Origin: a virus
Lineage: Duplodnaviria; Caudoviricetes
Virus record (IMG/VR): IMGVR_UViG_3300032896_000431
Coordinates: 1,157-65,156 of that record
Strand: one strand, 5' to 3'
Length of the DNA: 64,000 nt
Position numbers and translations under genes: made by a program. This document shows positions 1,850-34,930 of the stretch, one piece after another (the first letter of the stretch is position 1; each line of letters starts with the position of its first letter). Below the pieces are notes generated by a model. The model made no database searches. It worked only from the letters and a program-made list of their open reading frames with translations, and was not told where the DNA came from.

Positions 1850-3709
1850 TCAGAACAGGGTCGGCTGCTCGATGCGGCGCGGCGGGCGCGGGGTGGCGGT
1901 GAACGACGCGACAGGCGGTGACGCCGCGGGTGCCTTGCGGGCGTCGATCACCAGCAGCAATGCGGAGACGCCTGTGCCCTGGTCGGCGAACGTGTCGGCG
2001 GGCAGCCCTTCGGCCTTGTTGGCGATCGGCAGGAAGGCGGCGCGCTGGCGGGGGCCGTTGGCGCAGAGCGCGACCAGCCGGCCGCCGGGTTTCAGGAACG
2101 TCAGGGCGTGCCGGATGTGCTTGATGTCAGCGCCGTGGTCGAACGGCGGGTTCATCACCACGCGGTCGAACAGGCTGACCGGATCGCCGGGCGGCAGGGC
2201 GTAGGCGAGGAAGTCGTCATTGCGGATCGCAACGCGGCCGAGCGGGAAGTTCTGCCGGAGACGTTCAGCCAGTTCGGGGTTGACCTCGATCGCGCAGACC
2301 TCGCAGCGCGGCTCGCCGTCAACGATGGCCCGCAACAGGCTGCCGGTGCCGGCCGACGGCTCGAGTACCTGATGGCCGGACTGGATGTCGGCCAGTTCCA
2401 CCATGCGGGCGGCGAGGTCGGGCGGGGTGGGGAACAGGCTGGGGACCGCCGCGACCTTGATGCCGTCGCGCAACGTGGTGCGCATGGCGGCGATGTCGGT
2501 TGGCTCGGAGTCGGGCTGGCCCGGCGTATGCGCAACCTGGACCTGATCGAGCAGGACGAAGCCGATGCCATCGCCGGTGTCGCGCAGGCGCCCGGCGGCG
2601 CGGGACTCGGCGACTTCTGCCGCGGACATGACGGCGCGGAGCTTGTCGAACGGGATGGTGCGAGTGAAGTTCTTGCCCCCGTTGCGCCAGTTGTCCTCTA
2701 CTGTGACGGAAGTCCGGTTGACCTTGCGGATGGTGGACCATCCGTGCGGGCCGGGCGGGGAGCACCAGCATTGGCAGCCCCCGCCCGGTTCGGGCCTTAC
2801 CTGATCGGCGGCAGTGCCGCCGGCCTCCGCGAGCATGGCGCGCTCGTAAGCGAGGCGGTTGGCGATGTGGGCCAGCCAGCGGTCGCAGTGGGCCATGACG
2901 CGCGGATAGTGGTCGCGGGCGGCGTCCAGGACCTGCGCGACGGTCCAGGCGGGGCAGCGCGCATAACGTTTGTCGTCGGGCTGCAGCACGTCGTAGGCCG
3001 ACCACCAGTTGGCCGGGCTGTGATCCTGGCGGATGGCGTACAGGTGGCCAGCCTCGGTGCAGCCGGCGATGCGGCGGGCGCGCGTGAGTTGCGCGTCGGG
3101 TTCGTTGTCCAGGCCGGCGACGCCTTCCCAGAGTTTCAGCCCCTCCTCGGCCTTGTCCTTGGCGCGCTGCTGGCGGCGTTGCTCCGCTTCCAGGGCCTTG
3201 ATGCGGCGGGCGCGGACGTCGGGCCGTTCCTTGTATTTGGCGGCACGGATCGCGCCCTCGGCGCGGGCCTGCCAGTAGCCGGCGGTTTCCCACAGGCGGA
3301 CGGCGCGGCGCATACCGGCCTGGATGCGCTCGGCATCCTTGCGGGCGCGGCGTTCGGAGTGATGGCCGACCAAGATGGGCTGGCCGAGCGGGATGTTGTC
3401 GGCGATGGCGGCAACCGCGGCGCGGGCGGCGCCGGCGTCAGCGGTTCGCCGATCAGCGTAATCGTCGAAACGGTCTGCGCGTTGCTCGGCGCGTTCGACG
3501 AGACTGGTATCCTCGTCGTCGATCTGGCCGGCGAGTTCCAGCAGCAGATCTTCCCGGGCCGGAGTCCAGGTGGGGGCGACCCAAAGCTGTTGCTTGGGTG
3601 CCCAGATGAAGCCGGCAGCCTTGACCTCGTCGCAGGTTTCCGGGTCCAGCCGGGCGGTGGAGTACAGCCGGAGCTTGTTGTCGTCCGGACTGTACGTTGC
3701 GGTGATCAC
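1850..3709 (-). CDS. DUF3560 domain fused to a SAM-dependent amino (N6-adenine-type) DNA methyltransferase
   Basis: TATYSPDDNKLRLY...IPLGQPILVGHHSERRARKDAERI (DUF3560); VLEPSAGTGSL motif I and VVMNPPF motif IV; AAGGA RBS before GTG at 3709. Confidence 0.85.
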   Translation of the reverse strand: MITATYSPDDNKLRLYSTARLDPETCDEVKAAGFIWAPKQQLWVAPTWTPAREDLLLELAGQIDDEDTSLVERAEQRADRFDDYADRRTADAGAARAAVAAIADNIPLGQPILVGHHSERRARKDAERIQAGMRRAVRLWETAGYWQARAEGAIRAAKYKERPDVRARRIKALEAEQRRQQRAKDKAEEGLKLWEGVAGLDNEPDAQLTRARRIAGCTEAGHLYAIRQDHSPANWWSAYDVLQPDDKRYARCPAWTVAQVLDAARDHYPRVMAHCDRWLAHIANRLAYERAMLAEAGGTAADQVRPEPGGGCQCWCSPPGPHGWSTIRKVNRTSVTVEDNWRNGGKNFTRTIPFDKLRAVMSAAEVAESRAAGRLRDTGDGIGFVLLDQVQVAHTPGQPDSEPTDIAAMRTTLRDGIKVAAVPSLFPTPPDLAARMVELADIQSGHQVLEPSAGTGSLLRAIVDGEPRCEVCAIEVNPELAERLRQNFPLGRVAIRNDDFLAYALPPGDPVSLFDRVVMNPPFDHGADIKHIRHALTFLKPGGRLVALCANGPRQRAAFLPIANKAEGLPADTFADQGTGVSALLLVIDARKAPAASPPVASFTATPRPPRRIEQPTLF

Positions 3710-3782
3710 GGGGTTATCCTTTCGGGCGATGCCGCGGCACCTGACGGGCGTTTTGCCCTGGTGCCCCGGTATCGGGTGGGGG

Positions 3783-3986
3783 TCAGGCGGCCTTTTTCGC
3801 CATGACGTTGAGCGAGTAGCTGAGGGCGATGCCCTTGGGGCCTGGGATGGGCAGTGGGCCGCTGGTCGATCCGACCAGTTTCGTCTTGCCCGATCCCGAG
3901 GGCGGTGCCGCGTCAAGCGCGGCCTTGCCGATCCCCACGGTGATGATGAGCTTGTCGCCCTCAATGCGGTGTTCGACATTGTGCAT
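3783..3986 (-). CDS. Small basic phage hypothetical protein
   Basis: MHNVEHRIEGDKLIITV...PSGSGKTKLVGSTSG; AAGGGGA RBS. Confidence 0.7.
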   Translation of the reverse strand: MHNVEHRIEGDKLIITVGIGKAALDAAPPSGSGKTKLVGSTSGPLPIPGPKGIALSYSLNVMAKKAA

Positions 3987-4077
3987 CGTCGGTCCCCTTG
4001 CTCTGCGCCGGCGGAATTGCCGATCGCATAGGGAGCGGCCGGCGTTTTAGCGGCGGTTCCCAATGCGGTCGGTTCGC

Positions 4078-4800
4078 TCACGCGTACTCCGGCTCGGGGA
4101 CGGTGATTTCGCCGGCTGGGGTGTATTCCAGGGTGAAGTCGGGGGCCGGTTGGTTGGCGGCGGCCTTGCGGGCGGTGGCTGCGGCTTGTTTGACCTTCCG
4201 CTCGCGCGCGGCCTCGGTCAGCGCATCGCCGCTCAGGCCGGCGAGTTCGGGGCACTCGGCGAGGATTTCGGCGCGGTGTTTGGCCTGGCGCTCGGCGGCG
4301 GTGCGGATGTCGCCCTCCGGGTCCAACGGCCCGATTTCGGCGTACTCGGGACCGGTCGGCAGGATGCCGCCGGGCCAGAACTGCGCCCGGGGGAAGTTTA
4401 CGTCGCGCGGCGAGACCGATGTGCGGCCGAAGGTCCGGCAGGACGTCCAGCCGGCAGGCAGGCGGGCGTGCATAGAGAGGTCCGGGTTGAGATACCAGCG
4501 CGGTCCGAAAGCATCGGCGGCGGCCTGGCGGGCGGCGGTGAAGGCGGGCGCGAAGTCATCCCAGCCCTTGTAGCTGCGACCGCCCAGCAGCCTGGGACGG
4601 GCGGGGCGAGCGGCAACTTCGGCGGCACGGAAGGCACGGGCGAGCTGACCCTGGTCGTATCGCGACAGGCTGGTGATCTGGCCAAGCACGGCGGCGAGTG
4701 CCGGCGAGGCGGCGGGCCAGGGGCCAGGCGTTGGCACGGGCGAACGGGCGCGGAGGGCGGCGGGTGGCTCGATGCCGAACATCATGGGTTGCTCGATCAT
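4078..4800 (-). CDS. Hypothetical protein
   Basis: AGGAGA RBS; ATGA overlap with the upstream gene. Confidence 0.65.
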   Translation of the reverse strand: MIEQPMMFGIEPPAALRARSPVPTPGPWPAASPALAAVLGQITSLSRYDQGQLARAFRAAEVAARPARPRLLGGRSYKGWDDFAPAFTAARQAAADAFGPRWYLNPDLSMHARLPAGWTSCRTFGRTSVSPRDVNFPRAQFWPGGILPTGPEYAEIGPLDPEGDIRTAAERQAKHRAEILAECPELAGLSGDALTEAARERKVKQAAATARKAAANQPAPDFTLEYTPAGEITVPEPEYA

Positions 4801-5249
4801 TGGGCGATCTCCTGCGGTGCGGGGTGAAGGGTGCCGACGTAGGGCAGTTCCCTGCCGGACATGATGGCGTCGCGCTGGGTGCGGCCGGTGAGGCGCACAA
4901 CCGCGCCACCGACGCGGATTTCCTGCTTGCCGCGTTCCCAGGTCATTGCGGCGGCGTCATCAAGGTCGAGATAGGCGATCACGCTGCGGCCGCGTTTGGC
5001 GACGGCCTGCATGATGGCGCGCATCGACGTTGCCTCGCTGTAGCAGAGCAAGGCGCGGTCGCCGTCGGGACGGGCGATCTCGACTTCGTACATCGTCCGG
5101 CGGTTGCGTAGGCATTCCAGGCGGCGGAGTTGCTCCTCCGACAGGGGTGGCGGGGGCGTGAACACGCGGGCGGTGGCAACCTCGCGCATTGGGCAGGGAT
5201 TGCGGGGCGGCGGCGGTGCGATGGCCCGGCAAAGGTCCAACAGGTCCAT
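4797..5249 (-). CDS. Hypothetical protein
   Basis: GGAGG RBS before ATG at 5249 (MDLLDLCRAIAP...). Confidence 0.6.
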   Translation of the reverse strand: MDLLDLCRAIAPPPPRNPCPMREVATARVFTPPPPLSEEQLRRLECLRNRRTMYEVEIARPDGDRALLCYSEATSMRAIMQAVAKRGRSVIAYLDLDDAAAMTWERGKQEIRVGGAVVRLTGRTQRDAIMSGRELPYVGTLHPAPQEIAQ

Positions 5250-5262
5250 GGCTGGCCTCCGA

Positions 5263-5532
5263 TCAGTGCTGCGAGTGTTCACCGGCCAACCGCGTGCGGA
5301 TGCGTGCCGCTTGCTCGCGGCGATCGGCAGCAAGGGCTGCGCGGTACAGCACGATCTCGTGGCCGTACACGCAGCCGCGGTGGGTGGTGTCGATGATCGC
5401 GAGGTTGCGGGCGATGGCGGGTGCCCATTGCAGGTCCTCGAAGCGGAAGCAGCCGGGCGGCTGCTGGGTCTGGGCATGGGCGGCTGTGCCAAGCCAGAGA
5501 ATGGCGGCGAAGGCGGCTATGGTGCGGCGCAT
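5263..5532 (-). CDS. Small secreted protein, first gene of early operon 1
   Basis: Signal peptide MRRTIAAFAAILWLGTAAHA; GGGAGA RBS. Confidence 0.65.
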   Translation of the reverse strand: MRRTIAAFAAILWLGTAAHAQTQQPPGCFRFEDLQWAPAIARNLAIIDTTHRGCVYGHEIVLYRAALAADRREQAARIRTRLAGEHSQH

Positions 5533-5544
5533 TGGTGATGTCTC

Positions 5545-5577
5545 CCATATCAATCAATCATCTGTAGATTGATATGG
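5545..5577. promoter_or_regulatory. Perfect 11-bp inverted repeat (candidate operator or 5'UTR hairpin)
   Basis: CCATATCAATC-N11-GATTGATATGG between the -10 box and the RBS. Confidence 0.6.
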
Positions 5578-5581
5578 TCGT

Positions 5582-5610
5582 ATATTACGAGCAAAACCGA
5601 GGGTTGTCCA
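5582..5610 (-). promoter_or_regulatory. sigma70-like promoter of early operon 1
   Basis: TGGACA-17 bp-TAATAT on the minus strand with an AT-rich element upstream. Confidence 0.65.
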
Positions 5611-5812
5611 GGAATATTTTTCCACACGCAAGTATGCCGACCGGCGGCTGTTCTCGCGTGGTGCTGTGGTATCCGGGGAATGGTAGTGGGTCAGCGTGAA
5701 TCTCGGCTTTCGACCCAAGCCCGTCGCTGGGTGCGATCCGAACCAACATCAAAAACAGACATTCGCAGAGTTCGACAAACGCCGCGCTGCGCGGTTGGCA
5801 ACTCGATCGCTC

Positions 5813-6751
5813 CTATAATAAAAACTCTTCTCTGATAACTAACCCGTAGACGTCCCTGCCGCTGCGCGTATGACCCGATTTCACAAAGCCGAGGGTTTCA
5901 AGCCAGGCGCGTCTGCGCGGATCAGCAGCGGGCGCCAGGACCTCGACGCCCTGGCGAAGTAGTCCACACAGCCTCAAATGGCTAAACGCCGCGCGGCCAA
6001 CAAATCCCAGGCTCGTGGTAACACCAGGTTTCAGCGCGACACTAATTAGCAAAGCATAGGGTGCAGACCGAGGATCCTGCAATTCCCCATCAGCGAGGTT
6101 ATATGCGACCACCTCACCATTCTTATATTTTGCAGCCACCTCCGCTGAAACTCCGAGGACAGCACAGATGCCTGAGGGTTCACCTTGCTGGCGACCGCTG
6201 ACTTGAGGCGAGAACCGAAGCCACCGTCGATTCTCAACCGGTGGAGGTTTAAGCAGCATCAGCGACGTAGGCTGGAGCCGGTGCCACGTGAAGATGGCGT
6301 GGATTTGGTCAGCCGGGGTTGCATTCCCTCCGAGAAAACTCGGTCGACGATGCGACTGTATCAACTCCTGATGGAGGCGCGAGAACACTAGCCTATCCTC
6401 CGGCCGTTGAACGAGTTCATATTCGGACGACTCTAACGGCTGAAGCACCAAGTTGAGAACTTCGGCCATCGTCTTGGCCTTCAACGGACCTGCACCAGGC
6501 ATCGAATGGGATGGGTCACTCGCACGGCGCGCCAGATAAATTTCGCCACCTAAGATCATCGTAAGCATAGCTAGCAAGGCGATTTTGAGAGATGATGACC
6601 AATCTGCAAGCCCGAGTTGGGTTCCGAATATTTCGAGAATCAGGGCGATGGCCGAACATATCAACTCCACGGTCAGTACAAGCCGATGATGCAGGGCGGC
6701 GAAGCCGCTAACTGCATAAAAGAACCTATCGACTGCGGCGATCATTCTCAT
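5813..6751 (-). CDS. 2-TM membrane protein with possible GNAT-like C-terminal domain
   Basis: Two N-terminal hydrophobic helices; VEVLAPAADPRRRAWLETLGFVKSG resembles GNAT motif B. Confidence 0.55.
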   Translation of the reverse strand: MRMIAAVDRFFYAVSGFAALHHRLVLTVELICSAIALILEIFGTQLGLADWSSSLKIALLAMLTMILGGEIYLARRASDPSHSMPGAGPLKAKTMAEVLNLVLQPLESSEYELVQRPEDRLVFSRLHQELIQSHRRPSFLGGNATPADQIHAIFTWHRLQPTSLMLLKPPPVENRRWLRFSPQVSGRQQGEPSGICAVLGVSAEVAAKYKNGEVVAYNLADGELQDPRSAPYALLISVALKPGVTTSLGFVGRAAFSHLRLCGLLRQGVEVLAPAADPRRRAWLETLGFVKSGHTRSGRDVYGLVIREEFLL

Positions 6752-6790
6752 GCAGGTACCAACCAACAGCGCCAGAGGTTCTTCAGTCGG

Positions 6791-7861
6791 CTAACGTCTC
6801 TGATTCGTACTAGTCGCCAACTCAGCCCATCTACTGAGCACAAAGTCACGTTGGGCTGCGTCTAATAATTGATGACCATACGTCCGCATCCCCGCCTCGA
6901 CGACCTTTTGGCCAAGAAACTTCCGGATGACCTGATCAATCCACCGAGGTGGGTCCTGTCTAGATGATAAGATACGGGACAAGATACTCAAATATACGGC
7001 CGCGATGCCTGGGACATCCCCGCACCGCCGCAGTCCATCCTTGATGTGGATAGATCTAAATATCAGCGGAAAATCGACCCATCTTCCTGTATTATCATCA
7101 AAATTCAACCTCGAGAAGTCCGAAGACGACACGATCCCGATCAAAAGAGATACATATGACGAAGCTGCGCGCGGTGACAGCAACCGAGCCTTAAAAGCTT
7201 CTTGGAGCGCCAGATCGATATACGACTGCCCTTGTAAGCGCCGCTCCGGACCAAGACCCTCAGATCCATTTTCGCCATCTTCAGAATGATCAGGGTCTTG
7301 CGATGCCGAAACAGGCGCCCCAATTTCGTCGGCAGTATATCGAACGTCCTTGTAAGGTTCTAGATGAGTGGTTGATGCCCTCCCTCCCCCTAGCGCTACG
7401 AAGTTCGACTCGACTAACAGCGGTGCAATGTCTGCCGGGACTCTTGGCTCCTGTTTGCGCGATATATAGATTCCGATCCCATGAAAATTCTGATGATCCT
7501 CATACACCTCAGCAGCGGCCCTACTGGAAAAAGAGAAGCCTTCAATTCTGCGAATTCGTCCACCCCTTCCCACCCTATTGACCTGCAGCTCACCTGTAAC
7601 TATGGCGCATTTGAAGTAATATGTATTCGCAAACATAGTGCTCCTTATCTTCTGAAGCCCCCGAAGCAACGCTGAGAGATCCTCGACATTGAAGACGGCA
7701 CTGTCGCTCAGCACATAACACTGACTGCTATCTCCGAGTTCATTCGCCAAGGCAGATACCTGGTTTAAGAATAAACCAAGCGCATCCGCGAGCCTCTCGG
7801 GCGGAAGCAGTGCACGCTGACGAGTCCCTATCAGGTCAAGGAATGCGACCCAGTTTGGCAT
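6791..7861 (-). CDS. Class III nucleotidyl cyclase-like protein
   Basis: WVAFLDLIG and YVLSDSAV supply the two metal-binding Asp; FKCAIVTGEL and AAAEVYED...IGIYIS follow cyclase-fold spacing. Confidence 0.65.
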   Translation of the reverse strand: MPNWVAFLDLIGTRQRALLPPERLADALGLFLNQVSALANELGDSSQCYVLSDSAVFNVEDLSALLRGLQKIRSTMFANTYYFKCAIVTGELQVNRVGRGGRIRRIEGFSFSSRAAAEVYEDHQNFHGIGIYISRKQEPRVPADIAPLLVESNFVALGGGRASTTHLEPYKDVRYTADEIGAPVSASQDPDHSEDGENGSEGLGPERRLQGQSYIDLALQEAFKARLLSPRAASSYVSLLIGIVSSSDFSRLNFDDNTGRWVDFPLIFRSIHIKDGLRRCGDVPGIAAVYLSILSRILSSRQDPPRWIDQVIRKFLGQKVVEAGMRTYGHQLLDAAQRDFVLSRWAELATSTNQRR

Positions 7862-7874
7862 GCCAACTCTCCCC

Positions 7875-8933
7875 TCACCCGGCGGCGACAAAGAATCGAA
7901 CCGGCGTAATAAAGTTGTCCGTGACTAGCCGCCGAAAATTCGGGGGCAGCTTGTCAGGCGGAAAGATCGCGACGGCACGCGAGGTCCATCGTCGCCGCTG
8001 AAATAGTGCCATGACCTGCCTGACGTCCCTCGATAACCTAGGCACCTCCCTTGGACGAATGAGGACGTAACTGCCCGGCGATGGATGCTTCGTCAATTCC
8101 TCCGCAATGGCCTTTGCGCTCAGCTGCCCCCCTATAAGTCTCCGCGATCGTAGGTTACGGATCGCGGCCTCTCTCGTCGGAAGAAAGGACGAGAGGCTCG
8201 TGGTGACGAATCGATCCCACATGCGAATTGCTTCGCCAAATGGATCGCGTCGAGCCTCTGCTCGCCCGAGCGACGTGAAGCTAACATATCTTGAATCTGG
8301 CAGCAGATCACCGTAGGGCGTTCTGCAGACGCGAGTTCCACTGAGCGCCGTGCCGTAGTCAGCAAGGGCGAACTCGACCTTGCGACGATAAAGCCCCTCG
8401 CGCGTCAATGCCTCGATCGCGGGTCTAAGCACGTCCATCATGCACTCAGAATTAGCAATGCTCATCTCCAAAATCAGATCGAGAACCAAGTCCGAGACCC
8501 TACGCTCAAATGTGCCGCTGCGCGCACCTCGCAAGCCGATGGACGCTTGTATCCAGGTGTCTCCCTCGGGACGCCACCCCGTGTCGTCCTTGGCAGAGTA
8601 CGCGACCACGAAACCCAGCTGGTTCGGGTCGGGTAATGGCTCGAGTGGGATGCGCGGCTCGGTAGCATAAATCGATACCCGAGCGACCCCAGCCGGCAGC
8701 TGTCGGAGATAATAGGCGGGGGTATCTAGCGCCGGGTCATCCGGCACGATTACATTCCTCGTTTCGAGATGAAAGGAGTGAGGCTGAAGGCCAGTCCACA
8801 GCCGAATCCTCTCAAGCTCCTCTGCGAGATTGCGTCGGCAAAAGACTACAACGTCGGCCAGCGGCGGAAGTTGGGGCTCCAAGCCCCGAACGAGCATCAC
8901 GTAACGGTGGTTCGAGAGGTCGGGCGGCGCCAT
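7875..8933 (-). CDS. Hypothetical protein, first gene of the cyclase operon
   Basis: 352-aa ORF with GGAGG RBS and lower GC; no family recognised. Confidence 0.7.
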   Translation of the reverse strand: MAPPDLSNHRYVMLVRGLEPQLPPLADVVVFCRRNLAEELERIRLWTGLQPHSFHLETRNVIVPDDPALDTPAYYLRQLPAGVARVSIYATEPRIPLEPLPDPNQLGFVVAYSAKDDTGWRPEGDTWIQASIGLRGARSGTFERRVSDLVLDLILEMSIANSECMMDVLRPAIEALTREGLYRRKVEFALADYGTALSGTRVCRTPYGDLLPDSRYVSFTSLGRAEARRDPFGEAIRMWDRFVTTSLSSFLPTREAAIRNLRSRRLIGGQLSAKAIAEELTKHPSPGSYVLIRPREVPRLSRDVRQVMALFQRRRWTSRAVAIFPPDKLPPNFRRLVTDNFITPVRFFVAAG

Positions 8934-9495
8934 AGGTTAACATTCCTCCCGCCCCTGGAGGTTCATCCTCCGAGGGTTCTACCGTCGTCAGGTTATTACG
9001 ACGTTAACATCACTTCTGGTTGAGAGACAAGTCACTGTCACTCATTTCGCGGACGGGTTGCAACACCCTCCCCGCACCACCGCCGCACTCGGCAGCGCCA
9101 GCCCCGTCGCATCACGAGACCTCCCACTCAGGATGCCCCGCCGTGCTCGCCTCGATATCCGCGACAACTCTCGCCAGTACCCTGTCCCACTGACCCTCGA
9201 TCATGGCGGTCATCCGTGCTGTTCGCGCTGGCGGAGGCGCCAGCAGTACGCGCTCGACGATCGCCCATCTCTTGCGCCGGGACCGGCCGTCCGGCGCCGC
9301 TGGGTGAATCTGGCCGTGATGATGGGGTCAAGTGGCGTCCCCGCCTGGAGGCGGGCAGACGGCTCAGCATCGAAAGCCGAGGTTCAAACCGACCAACTAC
9401 CCAGCGAATTTTCCGCTTGCGTTCTGGCAAAACGACTCGTATGGAGTCGGATATTGTTGGGGCAGTTGCGCCCTCCCCCCTTGCAAGGTGATCGA

Positions 9496-10137
9496 ATGGC
9501 TCGCCGGCCGGCTTCGCGGCAGGCGGATCAACCGTGGCTGCTGGCGATCGAGTTCAAGCGGCTGGACGATCTGCGCCCCGACCCGAACAACGCGCGCACG
9601 CACACCGAGCCGCAGATTGCGCTGGTGGAGAAGTCCCTGCTGGAGCGGGGATGGTATCTGCCGATCGGTGAGGGCGATGGGCAACTTGTCTTCGGCGAGG
9701 CCCGATGGCGGGCCGCGCAAAACATCCACGCGCGGCACCAGACGATTCGTGGTGCACCGGCTGGAATGGCGCCGGTGGTGGACCTGGCGCACCTGTCCCC
9801 GGCGGAACGGACGGCGCTGGCGCTGGCCGACAACCGGCTGGCCGAGCTGGCGGGATGGGATTCGGCGATCCTGGCCGAGCAAATCGGCCAGCTTGCCGGC
9901 CAGGGGTTCGATCTTGAGACGGTCGGGTTCACGGCGGATGACCTGGCGGCGATGACGACGGCGGCCGACCCTGCAGCCGTGGTGGAGACACCCGTGGCGC
10001 CGGTACAGGACCGGTTCTGGATCAGCGTCCGTGGGCCGCTGCGGAGTCAGGCGCGAGCGTTGAAGGCGCTGCAAAACCTGATGGCCGACATCGAAGGCGT
10101 GTCGGTGGAGCTGGGGACCGTCCTGGACGATGGTTAA
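9496..10137 (+). CDS. ParB/Srx N-terminal domain protein
   Basis: LDDLRPDPNNARTH...QLVFGEARWRAA...LALADNRLAELAGWD. Confidence 0.85.
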   Translation: MARRPASRQADQPWLLAIEFKRLDDLRPDPNNARTHTEPQIALVEKSLLERGWYLPIGEGDGQLVFGEARWRAAQNIHARHQTIRGAPAGMAPVVDLAHLSPAERTALALADNRLAELAGWDSAILAEQIGQLAGQGFDLETVGFTADDLAAMTTAADPAAVVETPVAPVQDRFWISVRGPLRSQARALKALQNLMADIEGVSVELGTVLDDG

Positions 10138-10771
10138 CCGGGTGGCGCGGGCGTTCTCGCGCACGCTGGACGCGACCCGGCGGCAGCGGCGGAACGATCC
10201 CGTGGCGATAGCCGCGAAGGCGGAGATTCGCCAGCGGGTCCTGGACATGATCGGGCCGGTCGAGGCTCGGGTGTTCGATGCGTTCGCCGGCGCGGGCGAG
10301 ATGTACCGGCGGGTGTGGCACGGGGCGGCCGGATATGTGGGGTGCGACCGGAATTGGTACGCCGACGAGCGGCTGGTGTACTGCGCCGACAACCGGCGGG
10401 TTATGCGCTGCATCGACCTGGCGCTGTTCAACGTGTTCGACTTGGATTCGCATGGCTCGCCGTGGGAACAGGCGATCATCCTGGCGGCGCGGCGGCCGGT
10501 CGGGGCAGGCGAGCGGCTGGGCCTGGTGCTGACCGATGGCAGCAACCTTGATCTGTCGCTGGGTGGCATGGTGGCGCCGCTGCGGGAGATTGCCGGCTTC
10601 GTGGGAATCCCAGCCGGCGCGGCGCGGTCGCATGCCGAGATCATCGAGCGGGCGATCAACGGGGTGTGCCGGCGGATGGGCGTGCAGGTTCTCCGGCGAT
10701 GGGAGAGCCAGGGCGGCAGCGGTGCCAGGGTGCGGCACATCGGCATGGTCCTGGAACGGATCAGCCGCTGA
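10130..10771 (+). CDS. Class I SAM-dependent methyltransferase-like protein
   Basis: RVFDAFAGAG motif I and FDLDSHGSPWEQ (Trm1/TcmP-like DxDxxGSP). Confidence 0.65.
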   Translation: MVNRVARAFSRTLDATRRQRRNDPVAIAAKAEIRQRVLDMIGPVEARVFDAFAGAGEMYRRVWHGAAGYVGCDRNWYADERLVYCADNRRVMRCIDLALFNVFDLDSHGSPWEQAIILAARRPVGAGERLGLVLTDGSNLDLSLGGMVAPLREIAGFVGIPAGAARSHAEIIERAINGVCRRMGVQVLRRWESQGGSGARVRHIGMVLERISR

Positions 10772-11669
10772 ACAGCGGTTGCAGGCGGGCGACCAGCCCC
10801 GCGTAAGCGGCGGGGAACGAGCGGAACGTCTCGCCGTCCAGCGTGGCGCCGCCTTTTTCGCCGGCGACACGCGGCTTGCCGTCGGTGCCGATTTCGATGC
10901 GGGCCAGGCGCTCGCCGGCGGCGATGGCGTCGCGCACGCGGTCGATGTGTTTGCCGGCGGTGGACGCCGCGTACAAGGGATTGGCCTGCCAGGTGCCCCA
11001 TTGCTTGAGCCACAGCGCGGCGCCGGCATGGAGTGCCAGGTCGCGGCCTTGGCGCATGTGGTCAGCAATGCAGGTGCGAGCGTTGCGTCCGGATTCGCCT
11101 CCCAGCAGGACCTGATCGATATCGGCAAACGACACGCCGCGGAGGGGACCGATCAGCGGCTCGACCGAGGCAAAGGCGGTGAACGGGCCAACGTCCTGTT
11201 TCAGCCGGCGCAGTTCATCGAGCCGGACACCGCGGGGCGCGTCCTCGACCGAGACGCCGAGCCACAGGTGCGGCGGCACGCCACTGGCGCGATAGCGGGA
11301 AGCGATGTAGCGGCGAAGGGTCTGGTGGCGCTTGGTCAGGACCTGGAACACGGTGTCCGGGCAGGCGTCGATCACGTCGAATACCGCATTCCGGAAGGCG
11401 TCCGGGATATCGCGGTGCATCAGGTCCGACATCGAGTTGACGAACACCATGCGGGGCCGGCGTTCGGCGCCGTCTCGGACCGGCCGGAAAGAGCGGCCTT
11501 CCGGCAGGCGGTCGGGGTGGAGTTTGACGGTCTCGAAGTTCCCGCCGAACAAGCGGTCGGTGATCTCGCGGGCGTAGCAAAACTTGCAGCCGGGTGAGAC
11601 CGGGGTGCAGCCCGTGGTGGGATTCCACGAGCTGTCCGTCCAGGAAATGTGCGTGTTGCGGGCGGTCAT
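10761..11669 (-). CDS. DUF5131 (phage Gp37/Gp68) three-Cys, radical-SAM-like protein
   Basis: ISWTDSSWNPTTGCTPVSPGCKFCYA; FVNSMSDLMH; FQVLTKR; GGESG. Confidence 0.9.
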   Translation of the reverse strand: MTARNTHISWTDSSWNPTTGCTPVSPGCKFCYAREITDRLFGGNFETVKLHPDRLPEGRSFRPVRDGAERRPRMVFVNSMSDLMHRDIPDAFRNAVFDVIDACPDTVFQVLTKRHQTLRRYIASRYRASGVPPHLWLGVSVEDAPRGVRLDELRRLKQDVGPFTAFASVEPLIGPLRGVSFADIDQVLLGGESGRNARTCIADHMRQGRDLALHAGAALWLKQWGTWQANPLYAASTAGKHIDRVRDAIAAGERLARIEIGTDGKPRVAGEKGGATLDGETFRSFPAAYAGLVARLQPLFSG

Positions 11670-11670
11670 G

Positions 11671-11823
11671 TCAGCCCTCCGGGAAGGTGCGCAGGGCCTC
11701 CATCAGCTTGTCCGCCAGCCCGCGCGCGTCGCGCTCCGACAGGCGCGGTTGATTGCCCATCAGCAGGGCGAACAGGGCTTTCAGTTCCGCCTCGGTCAGC
11801 GGAACATCCGCGGTGCGGGGCAT
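11671..11823 (-). CDS. Very small hypothetical protein
   Basis: GGAGG RBS; MPRTADVPLTEAELKALFALL; abuts the DUF5131 start. Confidence 0.55.
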   Translation of the reverse strand: MPRTADVPLTEAELKALFALLMGNQPRLSERDARGLADKLMEALRTFPEG

Positions 11824-11910
11824 GGGTGCCTCCGATTGTTGCGCTGGTGGATGGCAGGCCCGCGGGTGCGGCCAAGGGCCGTCCATGGCGCGGCGGGTGA
11901 GGCGCTAGGG

Positions 11911-12093
11911 TCATGGCTCTTCCCGGGCGCCGGCCTCCCACCATTCGGCCTGACGGTCGGCCGCCTCGGACTGGTGCAGCAGTGCTTCCCGGCCGGCAGG
12001 TTTCAGGTGCGGGGCCTGAGCCAGGTCGCGCAGGTTCTCGGCCTCGGCGCGCCAATGGCGTGCGGAGTCCAGACAGGATTCGCGGTTGGTCAT
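11911..12093 (-). CDS. Small hypothetical protein
   Basis: GAGG RBS; MTNRESCLDSARHWRAEAE... Confidence 0.55.
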   Translation of the reverse strand: MTNRESCLDSARHWRAEAENLRDLAQAPHLKPAGREALLHQSEAADRQAEWWEAGAREEP

Positions 12094-12101
12094 AGCGCGC
12101 C

Positions 12102-12317
12102 TCACATGCCACGACCGGCGCGGTACTGCGCCTCGTCGAAGCATTCCGCCTCGAAGCGGCGGGCCGCGGCGTCGGCCTCCTCGCCGAACAGGCAAGTCCG
12201 GCTGCTGGGAACGTAGAAGGCCCGGGTGCCGGCCGGAACGGTCTCGCCGTTCGCCAGCTTGGTTGGGTACTTGGTCGTGATCCAGTGCGGATCGCGTGAG
12301 AAACGATTGCGGCGCAT
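12102..12317 (-). CDS. Small hypothetical phage protein
   Basis: GGAG RBS; MRRNRFSRDPHWITTKY... Confidence 0.6.
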   Translation of the reverse strand: MRRNRFSRDPHWITTKYPTKLANGETVPAGTRAFYVPSSRTCLFGEEADAAARRFEAECFDEAQYRAGRGM

Positions 12318-12357
12318 GGCGTCACTCCATGGTGGTTGCGGGATTCGCCGTGGCAGA

Positions 12358-12999
12358 TTAGCCCCACGGCAGGCCGAACTTGTCGGCGCAGATCGGGCCG
12401 TAGCCGGCGTCGATTGATCGGTGATCGGTCAGTTCCAGGCCACAGAAGCAGCAGTGGCCGAACCGTTGGCCGTAGATCTTTGCTTGCCCGGCGGGTGCGG
12501 CAGCGAAGGCGTGCAACGCGGCGCCAATCGCTGCGGCATCATCGGGCGCGACGGTGTGGTGCGGGTGGAACATCCCGCCCAGGTCGATGCGGCCATAGAA
12601 CGTGCGGTCGGCAAATGCCTTGTCGTCGCTGGTGACGCTGACTGAACCGGGTTCGCGGGCGGCGATTCCGGCCCGGCCCAGGCGGAACCGCAGGCCGTTG
12701 TCCGCGGCAAACCGAACGACCGGCCATTTCAGGGCCAGGGCGGCATACGCCAGCATGTCAACGATGGGTGACAGACCATCGGTGGTTGGCGCGCGGGGTT
12801 GCCTGGCGCGGGCGGCAAGGCTGCCGGCCAGAGCGAATTGCCTGTCTGTCCAAGCGCGGGAGCGTGCCTGGTACAGCAGGCTGTCGGCGGTATCGCGGTC
12901 GCGTTCGCCCAGCCTGTCGCGGCAGGCGCGCAACGCGGCCACGGCGGGCGCTTCGCGCGGGGCGGGCGGGGCGAACATGTTGGGCGTTTGCAGTGGCAT
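12358..12999 (-). CDS. DUF6011 Zn-finger protein
   Basis: C-terminal YGQRFGHCCFCGLELTDHRSIDAGYGPICADK. Confidence 0.8.
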   Translation of the reverse strand: MPLQTPNMFAPPAPREAPAVAALRACRDRLGERDRDTADSLLYQARSRAWTDRQFALAGSLAARARQPRAPTTDGLSPIVDMLAYAALALKWPVVRFAADNGLRFRLGRAGIAAREPGSVSVTSDDKAFADRTFYGRIDLGGMFHPHHTVAPDDAAAIGAALHAFAAAPAGQAKIYGQRFGHCCFCGLELTDHRSIDAGYGPICADKFGLPWG

Positions 13000-34732: not shown

Positions 34733-34930
34733 ATGGCAGACGAACTTATGGAGCGCATCCGAGACGCCGTCGTTGCGGAGTGCCTGTTTCAGCCTGCCGA
34801 CAGGGTGCGGCGGGCGGTAACGACGGTTTGCGATGGCATCCTGTCCTGCCTGGATGATCCCGCGCAGGACTGGCCCGGCTCGCCGGCCATCGGTTCGCAT
34901 CTGCTGGCGTGGGGAGCCAATGATGGGTAG
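34733..34930 (+). CDS. Small hypothetical protein; stop codon supplied by the cassette TIR
   Basis: GAGGA RBS; its TAG lies inside the GGTAG of the repeat. Confidence 0.5.
   Translation: MADELMERIRDAVVAECLFQPADRVRRAVTTVCDGILSCLDDPAQDWPGSPAIGSHLLAWGANDG

Follow-up and report, generated by a model that had tools for sequence, protein, structure and literature searches.

A conserved gene pair with a divergent class III cyclase-fold protein on a provirus cassette: a candidate mobile defence module

The window analysed in this study, a 64,000-nucleotide (nt) stretch of viral DNA (Duplodnaviria; Caudoviricetes), covers most of the provirus record IMGVR_UViG_3300032896_000431 of IMG/VR (65,156 bases; estimated to be 84% complete), and it contains three adjacent genes, here called A, B and C, of which A and B are weighed below as a candidate defence module. 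All three lie co-directionally on the minus strand in the order A, B, C. Gene A (7875..8933) begins with an ATG and encodes a soluble protein of 352 amino acids (aa), the upstream partner of B; gene B (6791..7861) encodes a protein of 356 aa, in which a putative cyclase-fold enzyme is followed by a helical C-terminal domain; and gene C (5813..6745) encodes, by the start used for the public protein P0003, 310 aa, with a soluble C-terminal part after two predicted membrane helices (its longest frame, from a TTG start at 6766, gives 317 aa). The ATG of B stands behind a ribosome-binding site of the GGGGAGAG type, 13 nt after the TGA of A, and the spacing between B and C is 24-45 nt, depending on the choice of the start of C. 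The guanine-plus-cytosine (GC) content falls to 0.51-0.61 over positions 5501-9000 (0.51-0.63 across 5.5-9.4 kb), compared with 0.69-0.72 in both flanks. An earlier note on this DNA, made from its letters alone, had described a tightly spaced, lower-GC operon of three genes inside a cassette, and the coordinates, the spacing, the GC content and the inverted repeats agree with that description. Its remarks that the locus shows no recognisable cyclic nucleotide monophosphate (cNMP)-binding domain and that the 352-aa product of the first gene resembles nothing known also held: none of A, B and C matched any family, cNMP-binding domains included, in Pfam, NCBIfam, PADLOC or PHROG. Neither A nor B contains a hydrophobic segment (Kyte-Doolittle windows of 19 aa at ≥1.6).

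Protein B carries the motifs FLDLIG at residues 7-12 and LSDS at residues 51-54, as the earlier note had pointed out. When 5.8 billion proteins were searched with B through a word index, P0002 (39% identity) was the only relative returned. With a threshold of E≤1e-3, an exhaustive HMMER search with a two-sequence profile extended the family to 291 proteins, of which 144 reached E≤1e-10; the matches listed are mostly 310-400 aa long. From the top 98 of these listed matches, P0005, P0057, P0059 and P0095 were left out as fragments and the other 94 were aligned; 52 further listed matches were not used. The identity of the 94 aligned relatives to B is 17-40%, and, apart from the start Met, only two positions are invariant in all of them. 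These are D9 (codon at 7835..7837, minus strand), the first putative metal-binding Asp, and D53 (codon at 7703..7705, minus strand), the second, which lies 44 residues from D9. Near-invariant positions are S52 (88 of 94), R73 (87), G90 (90), F111 (93), G128 (93), G130 (92) and D172 (92), and position 84 is basic in most members (Lys in 61/94 and Arg in 10/94). Searches of the 94 relatives against Pfam and PADLOC yielded nothing beyond single chance-level matches, and no known fused domain was found by Pfam in ten longer members of the family (401-481 aa). Ten sampled members were all singleton clusters, either nameless or named 'hypothetical protein'.

We then turned to the predicted structure of B. 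A model calculated with AlphaFold2 (AF2) from the 94-row alignment had a predicted local distance difference test score (pLDDT) of 93.2 and a predicted template-modelling score of 0.92; it replaces an earlier AF2 model from two sequences, which was poor (pLDDT 56). Structural searches of this model place a class III cyclase-homology-like palm domain at residues 1-179 of B (7325..7861, minus strand). Foldseek against the PDB returned 120 matches at E≤1e-3, headed by 2w01_B with an E value of 1.4e-6, and the best-ranked matches shown were all class III adenylyl, guanylyl or uridylyl cyclases. Similarly, when the model was compared with 48,161 chains by VIA-align, an aligner independent of Foldseek, class III cyclases occupied ranks 1-24 with Z-scores of 12.9-10.1 and 144-169 aligned residues, spanning residues 1 to ∼177 of the model. 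The best of these matches was 3et6_B (Z 12.9, 163 aligned residues, root-mean-square deviation 3.8), and the Pycsar cyclases followed with Z-scores of 11.9 (7r65, a cUMP synthase), 10.9 (8jsz) and 10.6 (8jsf). Other palm folds scored lower: GGDEF domains reached a Z-score of at most 9.5 with ∼113 aligned residues, GTP cyclohydrolase III (2qv6) 9.2, the class III cyclase-like ATP-binding protein 6yii 9.1 and Cmr2 (Cas10) 8.4. In BFVD, a fold search with B listed only generic viral guanylate-cyclase or GGDEF proteins (best E 7.6e-5), and searches of PDB sequences with B profiles gave either no match or chance matches to malate dehydrogenase, CdiI and GFP. Beyond the palm domain, the AF2 secondary structure outlines an all-helical C-terminal domain at residues 205-356 (6794..7249, minus strand), a part of B that lies past the end of the listed fold matches at residue ∼177; it holds a conserved R-Y-Y patch, which reads S-S-Y in the window copy.

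The predicted fold could be compared with that of canonical cyclases at the level of single residues. As a reference set we used nine PF00211 domains, taken from the genomes in which two of the related loci lie (L002 and L004, described below), and in these D16, D60, N132 and R136 are invariant (9/9). Class III cyclases carry a metal-binding Asp pair, one residue on strand 1 and the other on the hairpin of strands 2-3, and a transition-state Asn/Arg pair on the helix that follows the dimerisation arm; D16 and D60 are taken as the former pair, and N132 and R136 as the latter. The spacing between the two Asp residues is 44 in B and in the canonical domains alike. According to PMC11224242, it is also 44 in the Pycsar cyclases EaPycC (D102/D146) and AnPycC (D62/D106). 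The proposals of the earlier note that the middle protein would model as a class III cyclase fold and that D9 and D53 would be its key acids are thus both borne out, the former by the AF2 model and the two structural searches and the latter by 94 of 94 relatives and the shared spacing.

Next we asked which genes accompany B elsewhere. Homologues of B were located in 10 loci apart from the window, giving 11 distinct loci (the window, L002, L003=L006, L004, L005, L007, L008, L009, L010, L011=L012=L013 and L041), a small and biased sample because it was collected with motif patterns taken from 14, 14, 8 and 9 of the 94 members and with two tblastn searches; scans of viral contigs with three further alignment-derived patterns found nothing. 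In 11/11 of these loci an open reading frame (ORF) of 338-371 aa lies directly upstream of the B homologue on the same strand, and in 10/11 the gap between the two is at most 14 nt or is replaced by a 4-nt overlap, the remaining gap being 54 nt in L010. A hidden Markov model (HMM) of six of the upstream ORFs, from which the A of the window had been left out, matched A alone among the 576 ORFs of the window (E 1.4e-17). Further, an A HMM of six core members found, among 355 ORFs, the upstream ORFs of L009 (3e-20) and L041 (7e-14) and missed those of L008, L010 and L011, which are connected to the A core by profile-profile comparison only (probability 68%, E 4.6e-5, 150 columns). Homology of the upstream ORF to A was detected by HMM or phmmer in 7/10 of the other loci. 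The A-B gene order is the same in Alpha- and Betaproteobacteria, in Bacteroidales and in low-GC gut elements. Overall, the gene order and the profile matches indicate that the conserved unit is A plus B, and not the A-B-C trio, and A and B are probably translationally coupled.

A word search with protein A itself gave no detectable relative, and the best match in the ESM Atlas scored 0.81 with a stored model of pLDDT 0.31, so that the structure rows obtained there carry no meaning. The notion that A is a degenerate second half of a cyclase was also considered and is unsupported, as hhalign gave an E value of 0.65 against the B family and 0.15 against the PF00211 domains.

The earlier note had regarded the three genes as a unit and had suggested that the enzyme makes a signal that is read by a membrane effector, the product of the third gene, through a GNAT-like fold. 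In a relay of this kind B would signal to C, with A as an accessory, and several features of the window speak for it: the three genes run in one direction with little space between them, have a low GC content, share one terminator-like site and were mobilised as one cassette. C contains two hydrophobic segments, at residues 25-54 and 60-80 (317-aa frame; 6527..6694, minus strand; Kyte-Doolittle windows as above), and its first match in the ESM Atlas (0.95, 178/256 features) is a cluster with the automatic name 'N-acetyltransferase domain-containing protein'; a cluster bearing PF00583 appeared at a score of 0.90. Membrane effectors are also used by Pycsar, as described in PMC11224242. However, the hydrophobic segments are the part of the description of C that stood, whereas the GNAT-like assignment of its C-terminal region (5816..6169, minus strand) is an Atlas lead that drew no support from any sequence-profile test. 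The isolated soluble part of C matched no GNAT family of Pfam even at E≤10, its PDB sequence matches had E values of 0.24 or more, and 12 PF00583 proteins of two genomes were made into an ad hoc GNAT HMM, which did not find C among the 576 window ORFs. With hhalign, 17 C-terminal columns of C were aligned to a helix-strand element near the GNAT C-terminus (E 0.52).

The distribution of C bears on the same proposal. No homologue of C was detected in any related locus (984 ORFs, best E 0.29), nor in plasmids or phages, and a search of the 5.8 billion proteins returned only C itself. Sequence continues for at least 1 kb past B in six of the other loci, of which only L002 has a closely following same-strand ORF of at least 100 aa; its product (164 aa) is unrelated to C, and its N-terminal segment stays below the membrane threshold. 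Conservation of the trio, which the earlier note had named as a check on its proposal, was consequently not observed: only A stays with B. Because C is absent from the related loci, a relay from B to C cannot be the general mechanism of the family, and we regard this relay as very unlikely. As there is no homologue in related loci, plasmids, phages or the 5.8 billion proteins, C is, on this sequence evidence, a lineage-specific passenger or add-on outside the conserved system.

The A-B loci were next examined for their surroundings. In L002, a metagenome-assembled genome (MAG) of Rhodobacteraceae, the order is tRNA-Leu, P4-type integrase, A, B. L003 is a Bacteroidales MAG and is identical in sequence to the metagenome contig L006; L004 is a Betaproteobacteria MAG, and L005, L007 and L008 are metagenome contigs, the last with A-B in a recombinase- and conjugation-like region. 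L009 is the Rhizobium leguminosarum plasmid NZ_CP016287.1, a megaplasmid on which A-B lies among recombinase and insertion sequence (IS) genes. In the IMG/VR contig L041, the A-B pair is again low in GC (0.447) inside a prophage of high GC content (0.64), with ParB/methyltransferase genes on one side and the terminase on the other. Genes of defence type were recognised near three of the pairs. In L004, an OLD-family ATPase-TOPRIM protein of 659 aa (2864-4843) ends 96 nt before the A-like gene and is matched in PADLOC by Old (6.8e-23), GajA (1.4e-17) and also AriA; in L010 (MT838369.1), PtuA/GajA-like ATPase fragments follow A-B; and in L011 (=L012=L013), a low-GC IMG/VR provirus, a CapP-like M78/ImmA peptidase (1970-2779; PADLOC capP, 9.6e-20) is encoded upstream of A-B. 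This peptidase may be a damage-responsive regulator of A-B or may be the prophage's own switch. We also note that L011 encodes a hydrophobic protein of 194 aa upstream of A-B, and that L009 encodes a radical-SAM protein of 1,046 aa (9315-12455) with weak matches to pVip, the prokaryotic viperins (8e-13), 2.3 kb downstream of A-B and past an IS-type gene.

The contexts seen are all mobile, namely prophages or viral contigs (the window, L010, L011-13 and L041), an integrase islet (L002), a plasmid (L009) and a recombinase-rich region (L008), and the cassette of the window lies between divergent early operons. A pair with such a distribution might serve the mobile element in a way other than defence, as a counter-defence that makes or intercepts the nucleotide signals of host immunity, as an addiction or toxin-antitoxin-like stabiliser or in host takeover. 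Against this, the neighbours that could be typed are of the defence type (OLD/GajA-like, PtuA-like and CapP-like), and nothing points to a sponge or a nuclease directed at immune signals. In addition, accessory cargo genes of prophages commonly serve in defence against superinfection. On balance we judge a non-defence role to be distinctly unlikely.

In the window, A, B and C are contained in a cargo cassette of 3,735 bp (5667..9401) that is delimited by the low-GC block, by inverted repeats and by an apparent empty-site contig. The left terminal inverted repeat occupies 5682..5713 (plus strand) and the right one 9370..9401 (minus strand), each of 32 nt, and in the 8 nt outside the two arms (5674-5681 vs 9402-9409) 6/8 positions agree, as they might in a target-site duplication. 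The terminal-repeat motif has 6 matches in the window, compared with 0.26 expected, all of them in correctly inverted pairs, the other two pairs being the ends of a second cassette (28284-28301/29926-29943) and of a third (about 34926-34957/36350-36367, with matches at 34927/36367). At least three low-GC cargo cassettes of this prophage are thus separately enclosed by ∼32-nt inverted repeats of one family, and a scan of other IMG/VR contigs for the repeat pattern was negative. When contigs of three wetland-metagenome runs were compared with the cassette region, one 174-nt contig of run X2, ∼92% alike, joined position 5666 to 9402, skipping 3,735 nt and carrying five other letters between. This contig, a single one of depth 3, appears to show the empty site of a related phage; its run may be the one from which the window itself comes. 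A second joint, from 5946 to 10176 in runs X2 and X3, has a shorter side of only 22 nt and was treated as a chance or foreign match, probably a short word shared with another organism. Sister prophages with an empty site were also sought through ParB, and the one locus obtained, L026, was distant and was left aside. No transposase family was matched among the three cassette proteins, and the cassette would therefore be non-autonomous; the cassettes look like non-autonomous cargo transposons.

The cassette sits in the early region of the prophage, between the divergent early operons mentioned above, and the flanking genes whose identity was confirmed are those for a terminase, a DUF5131 protein, a DUF3560-methyltransferase and a CHAT protein. 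A consensus scan placed a terminator-like hairpin, followed by a T-run, at 5758..5783 (minus strand), 30 nt past the stop of C; the scan gave 4 sites compared with 3.5 expected in shuffled sequence. Upstream of A, a non-coding stretch of 436 nt with a GC content of about 0.61-0.63 (8934..9369) completes the cassette; no convincing ORF and no sigma-70-like site was recognised in it, and an Rfam scan of 5400-9600 gave zero matches. This stretch may be a promoter or regulatory region, or a remnant.

Considering the locus as a whole, we propose A-B as a candidate for a previously undescribed defence module that is carried by mobile elements and has a divergent cyclase-fold enzyme at its core, a reading for and against which we find the balance about even. 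Under this proposal, A and B would constitute a conserved two-gene module that moves on mobile elements, and B would bind a nucleoside triphosphate (NTP) with two metal ions. A phage cue, perhaps read by the helical domain of B, would cause B to make a nucleotide signal, for which a cyclic mononucleotide is the simplest guess, and A would be either the cognate receptor or effector of that signal or a sensor or controller of B. The outcome would be protection of the lysogen against other phages, with C as an add-on of the window cassette and not a part of the core mechanism.

Several results weigh against this proposal, some of which concern the relationship of B to canonical cyclases. PF00211 missed B at E≤1 and the 94 relatives at E≤0.01, and a six-frame PF00211 search of the three genomes or records that hold L002, L004 and L009 gave 14 domains, with zero at the B homologues. 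A comparison of the B family with the nine PF00211 domains by hhalign was not significant (probability 1.3%, E 0.039); its 49 columns nonetheless pair D9 and D53 with the canonical metal-binding Asp residues. Further, no conserved Asn/Arg counterpart of N132/R136 is found in the helix of B at residues 112-120 (112-125), which corresponds to the canonical helix by the order of secondary structure and not by superposition. At these positions the B family has G/S, a variable residue, A/V and Y, and around this helix, which follows the arm, it conserves Phe111, Tyr120 and a turn made of Lys127-Gly-Ile-Gly. With no conserved Asn/Arg pair of the canonical kind, cyclisation chemistry is not assured. 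From the model, B is predicted to combine the class III cyclase fold with its metal site, yet it is outside PF00211 as that family is defined, since the fold and the Asp pair are present whereas the profile match and the Asn/Arg pair are absent.

The same observations bring in another way in which the pair might act, in which B is itself the effector, or some other two-metal nucleotidyl transferase that depletes NTPs or forms a non-cyclic product, and A is its regulator, sensor or inhibitor. The loss of the Asn/Arg pair with retention of the Asp pair and of the basic position 84 would fit such an enzyme, as would the presence of GTP cyclohydrolase III (2qv6), of 6yii and of polymerase palm domains in the fold search. 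Moreover, A and B are both soluble and have no recognisable killing domain or membrane segment, and a classical 'signal plus effector' layout is therefore not evident. However, class III cyclases, PycC included, lead the other palm families by 2.6-4 Z units and by 30-50 more aligned residues, and the conserved R73, K127 and R234 of B could stand in for the missing Asn/Arg. We consider it unlikely that B acts in this manner.

The remaining points against a defence module concern protein A, the condition of the family and its neighbourhood. A and the A-like proteins have no relative in Pfam, PADLOC or the PDB (the A profile against the PDB gave 0), and sequence methods, the only ones applied here, recognised no effector or nucleotide-binding domain in A, which might still hide a cryptic nucleotide-binding fold. 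The B family is rare and very sparse, and B is broken in 2/11 loci: the homologue is split in L003/L006 (1201-2222; 64+266 aa) and in L008 (4977-6025; 182+151 aa), where the A-like gene is intact, which could reflect decay or sequencing errors. The association with defence neighbours, for its part, comes from a handful of loci obtained by motif-biased searches and may be coloured by them. The split genes and the sparseness of the family, together with the finding that no RNA dataset was among the sequencing runs matched to the region, could suggest that the three genes are cargo, in decay or unrelated to each other, with no joint function. This we regard as highly improbable, since there are three long intact ORFs in a block of foreign GC content, the catalytic residues are kept across 94 relatives at about 17-40% identity, and A-B synteny is strict.

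If A-B is an immune system, it would represent a new cyclase-fold signalling branch that is invisible to Pfam, PADLOC, NCBIfam and PHROGs, and its partner A, of unknown fold, would be a new type of receptor or effector. In the absence of the Asn/Arg pair from B, the NTP that is used and the product that is formed become a directly testable question. In addition, at least three cassettes with the same ends in one prophage, and one apparent empty site, provide a concrete starting point for studying how phages gain and exchange defence-like accessory genes. A bolder version of the proposal, which we put forward as tentative and as more doubtful than not, is that A-B is a new multi-phylum immune system, borne by mobile elements, in which a cyclase fold without the Asn/Arg pair is joined to a helical sensor domain and A is an effector or receptor of a new fold, and that in this prophage a family of non-autonomous cassettes moves the pair as cargo and also delivers other defence-like genes; the loss of the Asn/Arg pair would then imply a non-canonical nucleotide or a new catalytic arrangement.

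Finally, we compared A-B with systems already known. Our search of the literature, which covered passages of PMC13069673 and PMC11224242, found no description of the A-B pair, and the Pycsar clade described in PMC13069673 was found with a PycC HMM and is not the B family. The canonical PF00211 cyclases (3et6, 1ybt, 2w01 and 1cs4) share with residues 1-177 of B the fold, the order of secondary structure, the Asp pair and a Gly after strand 4, and B has a basic residue at the place of the canonical phosphate-binding Arg, as read from the alignment and not from a computed superposition; they differ in that B has no profile match and does not conserve the invariant Asn and Arg. The palm domains of GGDEF proteins and of Cas10/mCpol have the same superfold and two acidic metal ligands (Z 8.3-9.5 for GGDEF and 8.4 for Cmr2), but their Z-scores are lower, they align ∼50 fewer residues than class III cyclases do, and B has neither a GGDEF nor a GGDD hairpin motif. 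Guard systems of the Panoptes type also place a palm-domain nucleotide-synthase gene beside a partner in defence loci and are similar to A-B in this respect, whereas the conserved partner in A-B is soluble and not a membrane effector.

Pycsar, lastly, is likewise organised around a class III cyclase-fold enzyme, in a compact operon that occurs on mobile or defence loci, and B resembles the PycC structures 7r65, 8jsz and 8jsf, with the 44-residue Asp spacing reported in PMC11224242. The differences are that the PADLOC models, Pycsar included, miss B and give only two single chance-level matches among its 94 relatives; that A and C have no cNMP-binding or TIR domain by Pfam and PADLOC, and A no transmembrane segment; and that B has an extra helical domain of ∼150 residues and a partner gene that lies upstream and is apparently translationally coupled. 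Overall, although A-B lacks the features by which membership of Pycsar is recognised, namely recognition as PycC and a cNMP-binding transmembrane or TIR effector, the comparison suggests that, of these systems, it is Pycsar that A-B would most resemble in the way it works.

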